A stretch of 64,000 nt of DNA, taken from Candidatus Woesearchaeota archaeon. GTDB taxonomy: Archaea > Nanobdellota > Nanobdellia > Pacearchaeales > GW2011-AR1. This document shows, piece by piece, positions 4,344 through 61,061 of the stretch. The notes under the pieces were generated by a model. The model saw only the letters and a list, made by a program, of their open reading frames with translations. It searched no databases and was not told where the DNA came from. The DNA lies in contig CAYPFA010000001.1 of assembly GCA_964410025.1 (NCBI GenBank), positions 223,401 through 287,400 on the forward strand. Reading direction: 5' to 3'. The position numbers and the translations under genes are program-made. Every line of letters starts with the position of its first letter. The first letter of the stretch is position 1.

Positions 4344-4904
4344 TTAATATTCAGCAAAGTTTATTTCTGCTTTCGACATCTTTTGATAAAAATCAAATTC
4401 TGGTGTTTTTTCTCGTGCAGTTATGAAAATTTTTCCAAGTCCTTCCCAAAAAGAAAACCATCCAGCTGGCTCAAGCATCGTTTTAATAATCTGAATTAAG
4501 AATCCATGAAAAGCCGATTCTTCCAAATAAGTGAATGACATTATAAAAAATGTTCCCAATATAAACCACGAAATCCCCTCACGTTTTATAGATCTGATTT
4601 CTTTGTCTGCAATTTTGCTATGGTGCTCGAAATGGTCCTTTAATCTTTTCTTTATTTTCCACTCTTCTCTTTGATTTCTTAATACCTTCGGAACCAAAAT
4701 TCTCAATTCAAGCGCTTCGTTCTTGCCCCTAGCTGCACGTCTACATTCCTGCAAAAAATCGTCAGAAAGAGCACGCTCTTGAAAGGGTCTCGGATCAAAA
4801 TCTGAAAAAATATCTGTATAACTATTAATTATCAAACTAATATTCGCCTCTTTAATTTTTTCCGTTACCGGATCAATTAACTCTTCTGTCACCTCATTCG
4901 CCAT
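4344..4904 (-). CDS. Hypothetical protein with C-terminal membrane segments
   Basis: 186-aa ORF with a charged N-terminal half and hydrophobic ISWFILGTFFIMSFTYL. No family recognised. Confidence 0.4.
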   Translation of the reverse strand: MANEVTEELIDPVTEKIKEANISLIINSYTDIFSDFDPRPFQERALSDDFLQECRRAARGKNEALELRILVPKVLRNQREEWKIKKRLKDHFEHHSKIADKEIRSIKREGISWFILGTFFIMSFTYLEESAFHGFLIQIIKTMLEPAGWFSFWEGLGKIFITAREKTPEFDFYQKMSKAEINFAEY

Positions 4905-57458: not shown

Positions 57459-58493
57459 ATCGGCGTACAAATATCCGACATCATTCCAAGAAAGCCCATA
57501 GAACTCTCAGATCTAAAAGGAAAGGTTATTGCCATAGATGCTTTCAATACTCTCTATCAATTTCTCACAACCGTACGACAAGCCGACGGCACACCACTAA
57601 TGGATTCCAAAGGAGGAATAACTTCTCATCTGTCTGGCTTATTTTACAGAAACGTAAATTTACTCATTGAGGGAATAATCCCTATCTATGTATTCGACGG
57701 AAAACCACCTGAATTGAAACAAAGAGAAATTGAAGAAAGAAAAAAAGCAAAAGAAATTGCCGCTCAATTTTATGAGAAAGCAAAATCTGAAGGCAATGAA
57801 GCCGAAATGAAAAAATATTCTTCACAAACAGTAAAGATGACCGATGAAATAATTCAAGAAAGTAAAAGACTTTTAACAGCCATGGGAATTCCAGTTATTC
57901 AGGCAGAAGGCGAAGGGGAGGCAGAAGCTGCACTAATGGCATCCGAAGGCCTTTGCTGGGCCTCCGCATCCCAAGATTATGACTCTTTGTTATATGGAAC
58001 ACCCATATTAATAAGAAATCTGACGCTTGCAAGAAAAAGAAAAACATCCTCCGGAGCAATGGTTGACACTCAAATTGAAATGATTGAATTTCAAGAAGTT
58101 TTAAACAAATTACAAATCAACAAAGATCAACTTATCTGCCTCGCAATTCTCGTCGGTACAGACTACAATCCTGGCGGAGTTAAAGGCATAGGACAAAAAA
58201 GAGCACTTGAAATTGTACAAAAATATCAATACCCTGTAACAATTTTTGATTACATAAAACAATCAGAAAAATATGAAATGGTTTTTGACTGGCAAGAAAT
58301 ATTTAAACAATTCAAAGAATTAAAAGCGACAACTTTAGAAAAACAAAATTTAAAAAAACCTGACCGACAAGAAATAAAAAAAATCCTCGTTGAAGATCAC
58401 GAATTTTCAGAAGAAAGAATTGACAATACGCTCGATAAACTAAAAGTTTTAGACGAAGCAAAAAAACAAAAAGGCCTAAAGGATTTTTTTTAA
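57459..58493 (+). CDS. fen1: Flap endonuclease 1; conserved N-terminus begins at ATC 57459, whereas the track ORF starts at internal ATG 57600
   Basis: The in-frame upstream translation (I)GVQISDIIPRKPIELSDLKGKVIAIDAFNTLYQFLTTVRQADGTPLMDSKGG matches the archaeal FEN1 N-terminus [36 protein letters not shown]. An in-frame TAG lies at 57432-57434, and there is no ATG/GTG/TTG between it and 57600. Confidence 0.8.
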   Translation: MGVQISDIIPRKPIELSDLKGKVIAIDAFNTLYQFLTTVRQADGTPLMDSKGGITSHLSGLFYRNVNLLIEGIIPIYVFDGKPPELKQREIEERKKAKEIAAQFYEKAKSEGNEAEMKKYSSQTVKMTDEIIQESKRLLTAMGIPVIQAEGEGEAEAALMASEGLCWASASQDYDSLLYGTPILIRNLTLARKRKTSSGAMVDTQIEMIEFQEVLNKLQINKDQLICLAILVGTDYNPGGVKGIGQKRALEIVQKYQYPVTIFDYIKQSEKYEMVFDWQEIFKQFKELKATTLEKQNLKKPDRQEIKKILVEDHEFSEERIDNTLDKLKVLDEAKKQKGLKDFF

Positions 58494-58909
58494 TGAAACA
58501 GCCCATTCTCCAAAGCAGATATAACGAAAGATATGATGAATTAATTGGTGCCATAAAAGATATTGGATTTAAATTTGATAAATCAGACATCATGCGAGGA
58601 ATTTTCGAAGGATCTATAAGTATTCATGACGAAATGAAAAAAAGAGAAGATGTCCCCAGAGAAATTAAAGAAAGAATAAATCACCCTTCCTATCTTCTAA
58701 ATATAATGGAAGCTGAACTTGAAGATTTATATGTCACCTGTGCAGAATTACTAAAAGAGGTTCCAAAGGGAGCAATCCCATCAGTAGATTTCAAAAATCA
58801 CCCTGTAAAACCTGGCTATGTAGAATATAAAACAAAAAGAAATTTTATAGATTTAGCCATAGAGCAAATGGAATTTGAAGCTCAATATAAAGAATCGAAC
58901 AAAATTTAA
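58493..58909 (+). CDS. Hypothetical protein
   Basis: 138-aa ORF whose start overlaps the fen1 stop. No family recognised. Confidence 0.35.
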   Translation: MKQPILQSRYNERYDELIGAIKDIGFKFDKSDIMRGIFEGSISIHDEMKKREDVPREIKERINHPSYLLNIMEAELEDLYVTCAELLKEVPKGAIPSVDFKNHPVKPGYVEYKTKRNFIDLAIEQMEFEAQYKESNKI

Positions 58910-59385
58910 TTTTTCTCAAGTACTCTCATTAGTGTTTCATACACATGATTATTCGGACCAGCATCGTGTCTATGTTTCAAATCTTCTTTATCATATTCTA
59001 ATCTATAATGTTCTCCCAATGCAATTCCAACCGCAGTACTTCTACTTAAACCAGCGTCACAATGCACCATAATATCTTCAAATTTTCCCCTATTTGCCTC
59101 AACAAATCTCTTTATTTTTTTTGCAGTTGACTCCCTAAATATGACATATTTCGGATCATCCTCGTCAGGATTCCTAATATCATCAAAAACTAAGGGTAAA
59201 ACAGCAACATAAGAACCTCTCAAATAATCATATTTTGGCACCGTTATATTTAACCTCGGCGCTCTTCTCGCATAAGCTTCCAGTCTCATTAAATTATATT
59301 TAGAGCTCAAACATCTAATTGCAATCGTATCCTTATCAGGAAACCAATCATCCTGCACCTTCCTATGATCAAACACATATATCAT
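58906..59385 (-). CDS. Cys-based protein/dual-specificity phosphatase-like protein (CX5R)
   Basis: VHCDAGLSRSTAVG is the HCxxGxxRS P-loop of PTP/DSP enzymes. Confidence 0.65.
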   Translation of the reverse strand: MIYVFDHRKVQDDWFPDKDTIAIRCLSSKYNLMRLEAYARRAPRLNITVPKYDYLRGSYVAVLPLVFDDIRNPDEDDPKYVIFRESTAKKIKRFVEANRGKFEDIMVHCDAGLSRSTAVGIALGEHYRLEYDKEDLKHRHDAGPNNHVYETLMRVLEKN

Positions 59386-59702
59386 TTGAAATTAGGATAA
59401 AAATCTGTCTCCGTTGTAATCCCTCTATACAATTGTCCCACAAGATCTCTTGCGCCCTCTACATCTTCAACTCTCACCTTCATTTTAGAGCCTAATCCTG
59501 CTTCCAAGGTCATTATACCCATTATAGATTTACCATCGACCTCATTTCCACTCTTCTCAATAAAAACCTTCCCAGGAAACATACTGCAGGCCCTCGCAAG
59601 AAGAGCAGACGGACGAGCACAGAATCCATATTTTACTTTTAATTCTATTCCATCTACAACTAGATATCCATTCTCTTTGCGCACGTTATAGGCATTTTCC
59701 AT
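59382..59702 (-). CDS. HPr-like phosphocarrier-fold protein with Cys at the His15 position
   Basis: YGFCARPSALLARACSMF...GNEVDGKSIMGIMTLEAGLGSKMKVRVEDVEG aligns with HPr GIHARPATVLV...[32 protein letters not shown]. The Ser46 context KSIMG is retained. Confidence 0.65.
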   Translation of the reverse strand: MENAYNVRKENGYLVVDGIELKVKYGFCARPSALLARACSMFPGKVFIEKSGNEVDGKSIMGIMTLEAGLGSKMKVRVEDVEGARDLVGQLYRGITTETDFYPNFK

Positions 59703-59756
59703 AGTTCATAAAAATCAAAACAGTTTAATTAGTTAATCAATATAAAAAATATACTA

Positions 59757-61061
59757 TTACTTTTTAGCTTTCTTAATAGGCTTAGAACTTCTTCTTTTCA
59801 TTACAGTTACAATAATCCATAATAATGCAAGAGCTACAATAAATATAACTAAAACAATACTTCCAGTTGTACCCAAAGCACCAATAACCGCACCAGTGAA
59901 TGCAGAGAAGAATGTTTTATCTTGAGTATTATCGCCTATTGTGATTCCCTCGTCAGGTGTTGATTCCACTGAAGTGCTACAACTCTTTATCTCTTCTGGT
60001 CTAGCTGATGCCTTACAACTTGAAACTGGTAAAGAACATTCTCTTGTTTGAAGTCCATTAGATGAACATTCAGACCATTGTGTACATGTCCAATCAACAT
60101 AACAAGTGCCGGAACCACTGCCAGAAACAGTAGCTTCATTTCCAAACATTCCCCAAGATGAGAAGTGATTTGTTTTAGCCCATACATAATTTTCAGCAGT
60201 ATTTACTCCAGAAGATAATGGTAAAACCCAAGTGCTTCCGTTCCAATAATATAATTTCAAAGTGTTTTCATTTATTCCAGCAGCTTCAACTTCTGCATCA
60301 CTATAATAGAATCTAAGTTCTGTATCGTTGGATAATGTTCCACTACCGCTAAAATCAATTACAAAGAATTTATCCAAACCAGGTAATGAGAATGAGCCAA
60401 CATCAGCTGGAGCTTCAGAATATTCTTCAATAACTATTGTACCGCTTCCGCCATCTTCAAATACTAAACTAATTGTAGCATTAAATTCGTCGCTTGTAAT
60501 ATTAGTATCACCTTCAAAGTCAATTTCATAAACAGCGTCTGCTTCACCCTGAGAGCTAATAACTAGTGTTTGATTAGCAGAAGATGCAACAATTTTATCA
60601 GTTGTAACAATCATTTGAACAACATAACTTCCTAAGTCAAAATCTGTAGTGTCGAATGTAATATTATAAGATAATTTTGAAGAAGCTCCATCGTAGCCAT
60701 AACCATATCCATATCCGTAGCCATAACCATATCCAGCAGTTGAAGAAGACAACTTATCAATTGAAATTCCTTCACAAGCAGTTAGCTTGTTTCCAGCAGC
60801 ATCAAAGTCGCACGTATCAACACCATTTAATAAGATTGAAATTGAAGAAATATCCGCTCTTTCATTTGAACTCATATCTACATCAAAAACTGTACTAACT
60901 GAACTTCCTTGTTTTGGAGAATCATTAGAGAAATTTCCAAGTGAAACCACAAACGCGTTTGCAGGTCCAGCCCAGATTAAAAGTGTTAAAACAGCGATGG
61001 TGATAAAACTAGCAAAAACTTTTGTTGAATGTTTGCCGTATTTGTCGTTTAGTGATATCAT
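59757..61061 (-). CDS. Cell-surface protein with signal peptide, (GY)7 repeat, Cys-rich stalk and C-terminal TM anchor
   Basis: N-terminal FASFITIAVLTLLIWAGPANA. GYGYGYGYGYGYGY is encoded at 60693-60734. C-terminal TM helix followed by a KRRSSKPIKKAKK tail. Confidence 0.6.
   Translation of the reverse strand: MISLNDKYGKHSTKVFASFITIAVLTLLIWAGPANAFVVSLGNFSNDSPKQGSSVSTVFDVDMSSNERADISSISILLNGVDTCDFDAAGNKLTACEGISIDKLSSSTAGYGYGYGYGYGYGYDGASSKLSYNITFDTTDFDLGSYVVQMIVTTDKIVASSANQTLVISSQGEADAVYEIDFEGDTNITSDEFNATISLVFEDGGSGTIVIEEYSEAPADVGSFSLPGLDKFFVIDFSGSGTLSNDTELRFYYSDAEVEAAGINENTLKLYYWNGSTWVLPLSSGVNTAENYVWAKTNHFSSWGMFGNEATVSGSGSGTCYVDWTCTQWSECSSNGLQTRECSLPVSSCKASARPEEIKSCSTSVESTPDEGITIGDNTQDKTFFSAFTGAVIGALGTTGSIVLVIFIVALALLWIIVTVMKRRSSKPIKKAKK

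Follow-up and report, generated by a model that had tools for sequence, protein, structure and literature searches.

An HPr-like protein with cysteine at the active-site histidine position and an overlapping gene for a divergent predicted cysteine phosphatase in a DPANN archaeon

HPr is the textbook bacterial phosphocarrier; among archaea, to our knowledge, it has hardly been recorded outside a few lineages that acquired a complete phosphotransferase system (PTS). The canonical protein (PtsH) has His15 and works with EI and EII partners. Closest among described proteins to the one reported here is Crh of Bacillus and relatives, a paralogue of HPr fold in which Arg17 and Ser46 are kept but His15 is gone, and which acts as a regulator, not as a phosphocarrier; it has glutamine at position 15 and needs HprK/P and CcpA. 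HPr(Ser-P) is dephosphorylated in Firmicutes and Mycoplasma by PrpC or HprK/P, that is, by a PP2C or a bifunctional HprK/P enzyme and not by a Cys-based protein tyrosine phosphatase (PTP), and neither is translationally coupled to ptsH. Small dual-specificity-type phosphatases (DSPs) are in turn represented by Tk-PTP of Thermococcus, the SsoPTP-type ShufPTP, poxvirus VH1 and the human atypical DUSPs, all single-domain proteins of about 150 aa in which a beta-strand leads into the P-loop H-C-x2-G-x2-R-S/T and an acidic loop lies upstream.

The window, by which we mean the whole stretch of 64,000 nucleotides analysed here from a Woesearchaeota-type DPANN archaeon, holds genes of both kinds side by side. 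The features of the locus are as follows, in window coordinates:

59757..61061, minus strand: gene for a surface protein of 434 aa that has a TM anchor and, at the C-terminus, a Cys-rich motif (context)
59717..59752, minus strand: conserved upstream element ATATTTTTTATATTGATTAACTAATTAAACTGTTTT, 36 nt, with 35/36 identity to the sequence upstream of a second pair (L126, below)
59382..59702, minus strand: gene for an HPr-fold protein of 106 aa (ORF call, Pfam/NCBIfam scores, AF2 model)
59382..59385, minus strand: ATGA stop/start overlap of the HPr-like gene and the phosphatase gene (ORF coordinates)
58906..59385, minus strand: gene for a predicted phosphatase of 159 aa, divergent in sequence, with a CX5R loop and a DSP/PTP fold (family alignments, AF2, Foldseek, profile search)
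ends at 58493, plus strand: FEN1 gene (XPG_N/XPG_I), convergent with the HPr-like/phosphatase pair (context)

Both open reading frames lie on the minus strand where the initial annotation had placed them, and four bases (ATGA) are common to the stop of the HPr-like gene and the start of the phosphatase gene. Judged from the sequence, this overlap joins the two genes by translational coupling, and it implies a 1:1 co-translation of the HPr-like protein and the phosphatase. The pair is a real, lineage-restricted operon. The FEN1 neighbourhood is kept in relatives, and in those relatives that have no HPr the phosphatase gene stands directly 3' of the stop of the surface-protein gene.

The reading of the 106-aa product as an HPr-like protein with an intact Ser46 context and with cysteine in place of His15 holds throughout. 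It scores above the cut-offs of Pfam PTS-HPr (PF00381; 51.6 bits, cut-off 23) and of TIGR01003 (51.1 against 47.9), and its best solved relatives, in sequence and in structure, are HPr/Crh chains (E 9e-12). The segment G-F-C28-A-R-P-S aligns to G-L-Q15-A-R-P-A of Crh, so that Cys28 falls in the column of His15, the phosphate acceptor from EI; GKS59IMGIM aligns with the Ser46 motif, and Ser59 and Arg30 correspond to Ser46 and Arg17. Structure prediction, suggested at the outset as a check of the fold, returned an AF2 model with a pLDDT of 94.2 and a pTM of 0.86, for which the best 40 Foldseek matches are all HPr, Crh or NPr (top match 3ihs, TM 0.90, rmsd 1.1 Å); among the fold matches are PDB complexes of HPr with glycogen phosphorylase, Rsd, FruR and CcpA. 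The predicted fold is the open-faced beta-sandwich of HPr (beta-alpha-beta-beta-alpha-beta-alpha) with one extra beta-strand at the N-terminus, and in the model Cys28 occupies the N-cap position of helix 29-40, adjoining the conserved Arg30. Profile scores and model thus agree in marking the protein as a genuine member of the HPr family. It shares with canonical HPr the fold, the length, the G-x-x-A-R-P signature except for the histidine and the Ser46 motif GKSIMG. From Crh it differs by its Cys at position 15, by the N-terminal strand, by a C-terminal tail that Crh has not (of the form 'LYSGLTT..FDRF'; 'LYrGiTT..DFYPnF' in the 106-aa protein, typical of the DPANN His-less clade described below), by its phosphatase partner gene and by its placement in a separate clade.

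The partners of a PTS are missing at every scale that was searched. No PTS component had been noticed in the window and none was found in its 64 kb; the absence extends to the 830-kb assembly (88% complete), where the profiles Hpr_kinase_C, PEP-utilisers_N, PTS_EIIA_1, PTS_EIIA_2, EIIA-man, PTS_EIIC and Dak2 gave no match, and to the phylum, in which neither EI nor an HprK above cut-off occurred in any of 400 sampled genomes. CcpA, on which Crh also depends, is likewise missing here. The PEP-utilizer proteins of the genome are confined to frames of the length of PPDK or PEP synthase, and a single gene of Pkinase fold is a generic kinase candidate. Since EI, EII and HprK/P are absent from organism and phylum, the 106-aa protein cannot be a PTS carrier, and without His15 and these enzymes a PEP-dependent phosphotransfer by this protein is excluded. 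The use of the HPr fold outside a PTS, as initially suggested, is thus borne out.

The partner gene encodes, as had been proposed, a protein with a CX5R phosphatase loop; its predicted fold is DSP/PTP-like. The P-loop HCDAGLSRS covers residues 108-116 (H108-C109-D-A-G112-L-S-R115-S116). Its Cys109, Gly112, Arg115 and Ser116 are invariant among 12 diverse members of the family; in a wider set the cysteine and the glycine are present in 33/33 and the arginine and the serine in 32/33 each (the exceptions being L209, with SIS, and L224, with RA). F67-D68-D69, where strand 59-66 ends, is the candidate general-acid loop; it shows no variation among the 12 members either and is found in 29/33 of the wider set (variants FAD in L219, FND in L220, FRD in L225 and IDD in L216). 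In sequence the protein has diverged far: Pfam DSPc (PF00782) reaches 25.9 bits, below its cut-off of 33.5, with the match limited to the P-loop region (residues 89-122). The AF2 model (pLDDT 85.7) finds as top Foldseek matches only PTPs and DSPs (Tk-PTP, ShufPTP, MKP5, DUSPs) with a probability of 0.9-1.0, a TM of 0.45-0.55 and E about 1e-3, and a profile of the family retrieves poxvirus VH1 (E 8.6e-6) and DUSPs from the PDB. The protein shares with the small DSPs the features listed above, with the acidic loop as a candidate; what sets it apart, beside its divergence, is an extra acidic loop of 10 residues after FDD and its membership of a DPANN-specific family, found in 20/401 genomes of the phylum. 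From motif and model we infer a catalytically plausible and apparently active dual-specificity-type Cys phosphatase.

The cysteine of the HPr-like protein is no peculiarity of this genome. About 46 clusters, archaeal (DPANN) wherever checked, make up the clade in which the protein falls, and its members were recovered by exhaustive search of representatives; a word-indexed homologue search returned the query alone. In the tree (short alignment, support 84) the Crh sequences, with Q15, form their own clade inside the bacterial His-type HPr, and the 106-aa protein lies in the separate clade of 46 rows. In the alignment of these rows the His15 column holds cysteine in 25, Y/V/N/F/T/A/I/G/P in 15 and histidine in 6, so that Cys at the His15 site, as aligned, is recurrent across the clade and not a one-off, which is new here; it is invariant in the closest subclade. 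The closest relative of the HPr-like protein, P0009, is encoded on a 17-kb contig, is 57% identical and likewise reads GFCARPS. Arg17 and Ser46 are retained in most members, with Asp, Glu, Lys, Asn, Arg or Gly in the Ser46 column of some. A pattern on the Ser46 motif, run against genome contigs, brought up 78 bacterial His-HPr loci (mostly PVC-group), one Crh (Gln15) and one clade member (Woesearchaeota L051), loci that are uninformative on the pairing; metagenome contigs gave mostly bacterial His-HPr, with L126 and L128 as the only clade members. One contig (P0159), labelled 'Candidatus Paceibacterota' at NCBI, raised the question of whether the clade reaches CPR bacteria, which we rejected: the contig is archaeal, because it also encodes an archaeal-type S10. 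A sizeable HPr-fold clade thus exists in genomes without EI, EII or HprK/P, mostly with His replaced by Cys and with Arg17 and Ser46 kept, and it suggests that organisms of minimal genome use the HPr fold for regulation without a PTS, in a way not recognised before.

The pairing with a phosphatase is documented twice in total, in the window and on a metagenome contig (L126) that has the identical 4-nt ATGA overlap, at 4366-4369, and the same promoter-region element. The pair is therefore kept in one further lineage at least and, because an HPr fold is predicted as well, the initial proposal survives on both counts. The paired proteins of window and L126 are 57% / 37% identical and the two coding sequences 64-66%, and the flanking genes differ; the L126 phosphatase has asparagine instead of histidine before the catalytic Cys, so that the pattern HCxxGxxR[ST] misses it and an HMM search finds it. 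What did not stand is the notion of a general two-gene module. Among the 400 sampled genomes of the phylum the HPr clade occurs in 14, the phosphatase family in 19 and both in none; at about 29 further loci of the phosphatase family no HPr gene stands alongside, and at about 30 further loci of the HPr clade the phosphatase gene is lacking; HPr is found in 0/7 genomes of the same genus; and the closest homologue of the phosphatase (L008; 66% identity, sister, support 95/88) directly follows a surface-protein gene, with no HPr. Another phosphatase gene of the family (on the P0004 contig, 53-54% identical) is overlapped by 4 nt by an upstream gene. Because most loci of either family are without the partner, the pairing is facultative: the protein type is widespread in DPANN archaea that have no PTS, and its pairing with a phosphatase is rare, the exception. 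As the initial annotation had supposed, no description of the pair was found in the searchable literature.

The two pairs also share what precedes them. In the 36-nt element a T/A run resembling a TATA box precedes a block of 22 nt, and 14 nt separate the end of the element from the ATG of the HPr-like gene; it is 35/36 identical between window and L126, where the flanks are unrelated and the coding DNA only about 65% identical. With up to 3 mismatches allowed, the 830-kb genome has a single copy of it, and it was not found in 1.46 Mb of other retrieved loci; a match of its 20-nt core on a viral contig was judged to be chance, being a single match in a phage-like coding region with neither HPr nor phosphatase. 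A scan for sigma-70 promoters, uninformative for an archaeon, did not exceed the shuffled expectation. The element is probably the operon's own promoter together with an operator or transcription-start region.

By analogy with Crh or with bacterial orphan HPr, the HPr-like protein is most likely a small regulator or adaptor, its state governed by a covalent modification, and it is probably the substrate of the phosphatase. Our best explanation overall, favoured tentatively and given somewhat less than an even chance, is that this self-promoted, translationally coupled two-gene operon encodes a PTS-independent HPr-like regulator switched by its co-translated phosphatase. A kinase other than HprK would phosphorylate Ser59, the Ser46 equivalent, or, less likely, a thiophosphate would form on Cys28; the phosphatase would then take the phosphate off, and dephosphorylation would toggle the HPr-like protein from one binding state to another. 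With PrpC and HprK/P this scheme would share the idea of an enzyme dedicated to clearing phosphate from Ser46 of an HPr-type regulator. The HPr fold and motif placement, the missing PTS, the recurrence of the pair with the same overlap, the promoter-region element, the kept Arg17 and Ser46, the invariant residues and DSP-like model of the phosphatase, the 4-nt overlap on the P0004 contig and the candidate kinase of Pkinase fold count for this explanation; the facultative pairing, known from two instances, the zero co-occurrence in 400 genomes, the variability of position 15 and the Ser46 replacements in some clade members count against it. A rather unlikely alternative has the genes co-transcribed yet functionally independent, with a phosphatase substrate other than HPr and the HPr-like gene a dispensable passenger that landed upstream, the overlap merely persisting. 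The many unpaired loci of both families, the nil co-occurrence, the HPr-less sister phosphatase and the very diverse genomic contexts of the HPr-clade genes would all fit such a history, but it leaves unexplained why order, 4-nt overlap and promoter element were kept in two lineages that have diverged as far as the protein identities indicate and whose flanks differ, and where gene order outlives the synteny around it, the genes are usually coupled in function.

Two further readings concern Cys28 itself. It may just fill the former active-site surface, the HPr-like protein staying unphosphorylated and binding the phosphatase non-covalently as a regulatory or targeting subunit; HPr is a promiscuous binding module, as the complexes among the fold matches illustrate, many residues are tolerated at position 15 and the overlap would supply the subunits in equal number, but the retention of the phosphorylation-related Ser46 and Arg17 in most of the clade counts against this reading, which we consider improbable. 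Alternatively, Cys28 may be chemically active, either as a phospho-Cys carrier that exchanges with the phospho-Cys of the PTP or as a redox thiol, detecting or reversing oxidation of the catalytic Cys. EIIB domains are phospho-cysteine carriers, and in PTP, EIIB and thioredoxin chemistry a helix N-cap setting lowers the pKa of the thiol; the modelled position of Cys28 beside Arg30 is of that geometry, which would also stabilise the anion, and cysteine is the majority state of the clade and invariant in the closest subclade. Yet 15 of the 46 members have other residues there, the non-nucleophilic V, F, I, A, G and P among them, we know of no precedent for phosphotransfer from a PTP to a protein, and an obligatory phospho-Cys, as allowed for initially, is weakened by the same variability; this reading seems to us a long shot. 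So does its wider form, in which the DPANN HPr fold would be a PTS-independent signalling family with a reactive Cys at the His15 site and, in the lineage of window and L126, a relay, by thiophosphate or by thiol redox chemistry, to an enzyme of PTP fold; if true, a Cys-to-Cys phosphoryl or redox switch would be unprecedented among HPr proteins. Should the phosphatase reverse a modification of the HPr-like protein at Ser59 or Cys28, the HPr-like protein would be the first substrate assigned to this DPANN-specific group of small phosphatases. The operon of the window, which combines the coupled phosphatase gene with a conserved promoter element and encodes two small soluble proteins, is the most tractable entry point. 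The same genome has a second HPr-like gene, located 15 kb outside the window, which has kept its histidine; a recent duplication of this gene as the source of the 106-aa protein was rejected, the two paralogues being 25% identical.

The initial annotation had aligned the 106-aa ORF over its length with PTS HPr, with His15 changed to Cys and the Ser46 context intact, and had noted that its stop overlaps by 4 nt the start of a phosphatase gene. Both ORFs were recovered with unchanged coordinates, as was the overlap, the sequence ATGA being common to the HPr-like stop and the phosphatase start. The locus is arranged as follows.

58906..59385, minus strand: phosphatase ORF, 159 aa
59382..59702, minus strand: HPr-like ORF, 106 aa
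59717-59752: 36-nt block upstream of the HPr start, ATATTTTTTATATTGATTA(A/G)CTAATTAAACTGTTTT, 35/36 identical between the window and L126, a metagenome contig with a second case of the pair
59757..61061, minus strand: surface protein, 434 aa, with a C-terminal TM anchor, upstream of the pair

Downstream and convergent lie a 138-aa ORF (58493-58909, plus strand), for which we found no Pfam or NCBIfam match, and FEN1; the start of this ORF shares one base with the FEN1 stop, and its stop overlaps that of the phosphatase tail-to-tail by 4 nt. The ORF is absent in relatives, where the phosphatase gene is abutted by FEN1 or by a Fic-domain gene. In the same-genus genome G007 (L003/L014 5582-6817), a 411-aa Fic-domain protein is encoded between phosphatase and FEN1, again with a 4-nt tail-to-tail overlap at the phosphatase stop.

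The HPr identity of the 106-aa protein is borne out by scores above both curated cut-offs (Pfam PTS-HPr, 51.6 bits against 23; NCBIfam TIGR01003, 51.1 against 47.9) and by best PDB sequence matches that are HPr or Crh chains (E 9e-12 to 1e-10). Alignment with Crh sets G-F-C28-A-R-P-S on G-L-Q15-A-R-P-A and GKS59IMGIM on the Ser46 motif, which confirms the exchange of His15 for Cys (Cys28) and the intact Ser46 context (Ser59). Structure prediction also came out in favor of the HPr fold, because the AlphaFold2 model, built from 14 clade sequences (pLDDT 94.2, pTM 0.86), has the HPr element order plus one additional N-terminal beta-strand (residues 7-10), and its 40 top-ranked PDB structures in Foldseek belong without exception to HPr, Crh or NPr, with 3ihs first (target TM 0.90, rmsd 1.1 Å). 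In this model, Cys28 directly precedes helix 29-40 and Ser59 helix 60-64.

Searched exhaustively with HMMER, 1.84 billion representative sequences gave 625 matches, and among the best 150 the His15 column holds His in 107, Cys in 23 and V, Y, Q, N, F, T, A, I, E or G in the others. The sequences that align over the full length have in common an N-terminal extension and a C-terminal tail, RLYSGLTT..DFYPxFDRFE, and form a 46-row group (SH-aLRT 84) in a 160-sequence tree whose resolution is limited by the short alignment. Position 15 is Cys in 25 rows of this group, His in six and another residue in 15; outside it, His occupies the position in 106 of 114 rows, and the bacterial Crh-like Q15 sequences form a clade of their own inside the His group. 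Arg17 and Ser46 are kept by most of the 46 rows, position 46 being D, E, K, N, R or G in a few. The window protein clusters (support 92) with the L126 protein and with P0009, its closest relative (57% identical, also GFCARPS). Judged from these alignments, Cys at the His15 site is a clade character rather than an accident. All members of assignable taxonomy are DPANN archaea; one of them, L051, is a Candidatus Woesearchaeota sequence identical to the family-level match L226. Of 400 high-quality genomes in the phylum, 14 have the clade, and of 250 in the family, 13. The contig of one member, P0159 (L122, JGI contig Ga0209202_1000037), is labeled "Candidatus Paceibacterota bacterium", a CPR bacterium, at NCBI; this label is probably wrong, because the S10 gene 277 nt downstream of the HPr-clade gene is of archaeal/eukaryotic type (129.6 versus 73 bits).

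The absence of EI, EII and HprK, at first noted for the window, extends to the whole 830-kb assembly (6 contigs, 88% complete), in which Hpr_kinase_C, PEP-utilisers_N, PTS_EIIA_1, PTS_EIIA_2, EIIA-man, PTS_EIIC and Dak2 found no match, while control genomes gave the expected responses. Two PEP-utilizers_C proteins occur in frames of 1029 and 762 aa, which match PPDK and PEP synthase in length, and neither has the EI N-terminal domain, since the genome has no PEP-utilisers_N match. Across the 400 genomes of the phylum, neither EI-N nor HprK_C above cut-off was found; ten weak HprK_C matches cover the P-loop only, none in an HPr-bearing genome. As gene content indicates, the HPr fold is used here outside any PTS, because the genome yields no PTS or HprK match and the phylum sample neither EI-N nor HprK_C above cut-off. 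A 2008 survey reported that Archaea lack PTS proteins, a single haloarchaeal plasmid excepted (PMC2405797), and our full-text search for HPr in DPANN or Woesearchaeota, HPr-like proteins in archaea and H15C HPr found no description of such proteins.

The partner reaches 25.9 bits against Pfam DSPc, below the cut-off of 33.5 and over the P-loop region only. Nevertheless, the claimed PTP/dual-specificity loop stood up: R24, F67-D68-D69, C109, G112, R115, S116, N145 and Y149 are invariant across 12 diverse members, and a wider set of 33 retains the P-loop Cys and Gly throughout, with the Arg, the next Ser and the FDD motif each missing in only one to four. In the AlphaFold2 model (pLDDT 85.7), strands and helices alternate in the order seen in PTPs, Cys109 ending strand 104-109 and FDD strand 59-66. 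The model's top Foldseek matches are all PTPs or DSPs (Tk-PTP, ShufPTP, MKP5, DUSPs, VH1), with probabilities near 1 yet TM of only 0.45-0.55 and E of about 1e-3; the family profile matches poxvirus VH1 (E 8.6e-6) and many DUSPs. Given the P-loop conservation, the PTP-like model and these matches, the protein belongs, on sequence and prediction, to the Cys-based PTP/DSP superfamily as a divergent member; it is probably active, and FDD is a candidate general acid. Homologues occur in four of seven same-genus genomes and, more distantly, in 19 others of the 400.

Conservation of the pair proved to be far more limited. On L126 (35 kb), the HPr-like protein has 122 aa (FGLCSRPSA; 57% identity to the window's); a phosphatase-family protein of 180 aa (VNCESGESRS; 37% identity; E 3e-31 in hmmsearch) comes next, again with a 4-nt overlap, and the flanking genes differ. 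These two loci are the only documented cases: an HPr-clade neighbor occurs at two of about 31 distinct phosphatase loci and a phosphatase neighbor at the same two of about 32 HPr-clade loci, leaving some 29 and 30 without the partner, and among the 400 genomes, which are species representatives, 14 hold the HPr clade, 19 the phosphatase family and none both. The order and overlap recur once, and the proposed two-gene module does not hold as a general one. In the phosphatase relatives compared for context (36-66% identical), the gene lies directly behind the surface-protein gene with no HPr gene between (L003, L006, L008, L009, L011, L012) or follows another gene (L013); on the contig of P0004 (53-54% identical), outside the two documented pairs, it has a 4-nt overlap with an upstream gene. 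None of the seven same-genus genomes has a PF00381 match. The 36-nt block is 35/36 identical, as opposed to 64-66% DNA identity in the coding regions of window and L126, and the intergenic sequence next to it is unrelated. It occurs once in the genome with 3 mismatches allowed and was not found in 1.46 Mb of other loci; it opens on a run resembling a TATA box, its end lies 14 nt from the ATG, and it is probably the operon's own promoter with an operator or transcription-start region. In trees resting on short alignments, the 11 members of the phosphatase subfamily are well supported as a group (100/99); L126 is the most divergent of them, and the window phosphatase is nested beside HPr-less members, as sister to its closest relative L008 (95/88). 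The simplest history would thus start from an ancestral cassette of promoter, HPr gene and phosphatase gene, followed by several losses of the HPr gene; such losses would mean that the phosphatase can work without the HPr-like protein. This subfamily nearly always adjoins a large variable surface protein (the window, L003, L009, L011, L012, L126), whose C-terminus carries a Cys-rich motif (CxxxWxCxxWSxCxxGxQxRxC), an "ITGAVIG" segment, a TM helix and a Lys-rich tail; the adjacency may be plain synteny or a hint at the usual phosphatase role.

It is tempting to regard the HPr-like protein as a PTS-independent regulator with a covalent state that the co-translated phosphatase would reset, the likeliest target being phospho-Ser59 and the less probable one a thiophosphate on Cys28; we advance this best-supported reading only tentatively. 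The genome encodes one Pkinase-fold protein, a generic candidate for the kinase. The logic would be analogous to that of Crh, the nearest known concept and likewise a His-less HPr paralogue with Ser46 kept; however, Crh has Gln at position 15, the HprK/P and CcpA logic is absent here, and the window protein sits elsewhere in the tree and has additional terminal elements. The poor co-occurrence of the two families speaks for co-transcription without any functional interaction, which we hold to be rather unlikely but worth keeping in view. That the HPr-like protein binds the phosphatase non-covalently, as a subunit or adaptor, seems improbable. A chemically active Cys28, serving in a phospho-Cys relay or as a redox partner, would suit its helix-N-cap position beside Arg30, but the many non-nucleophilic substitutions at position 15 in the clade make this quite improbable.

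The genome holds a second HPr-clade gene, 15 kb beyond the window, coding for 130 aa, with His15 kept and 25% identity to the window protein.

G000 (the window's own assembly) contig 1, 297983-298186 (L001 1408-1800), minus strand: second HPr-clade gene, GGFHGRPTA, outside the window

It is the first of four genes that overlap or abut in a row, the others encoding two paralogous small 4-Cys proteins of 129 and 81 aa (C-x2-C ... (D/E)W(F/Y)xP ... SHG(I/V)C-x2-C) and a 121-aa protein, none of the three with a Pfam or NCBIfam match. On an NCBI MAG contig (L123 2532-4345, GCA_964551115.1), HPr-clade genes with N15, C15 and C15 alternate with three genes for paralogous proteins of 82-87 aa, all in one run of co-directional, overlapping genes, which suggests repeated modules of an HPr-like protein and a small partner. 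Elsewhere (L125 2688-4354; L019 1435-3012), a Cys15 form lies 5 nt behind a class-II fructose-bisphosphate aldolase gene and a His form with Arg at position 46 lies 12 nt behind a phosphofructokinase gene, which points to a possible connection with sugar-phosphate metabolism even though no PTS is present. Finally, fusions of 235-333 aa, with an unassigned N-terminal region of about 150-230 aa and a C-terminal HPr domain with His, occur in the window's order or class (L017/L111, L018, L020, L021, L022, L110, L114, L116) and in all four sampled genomes of one family (f9) of the order; they belong to the same broader theme as the window protein and are separate from the HPr-phosphatase pair.
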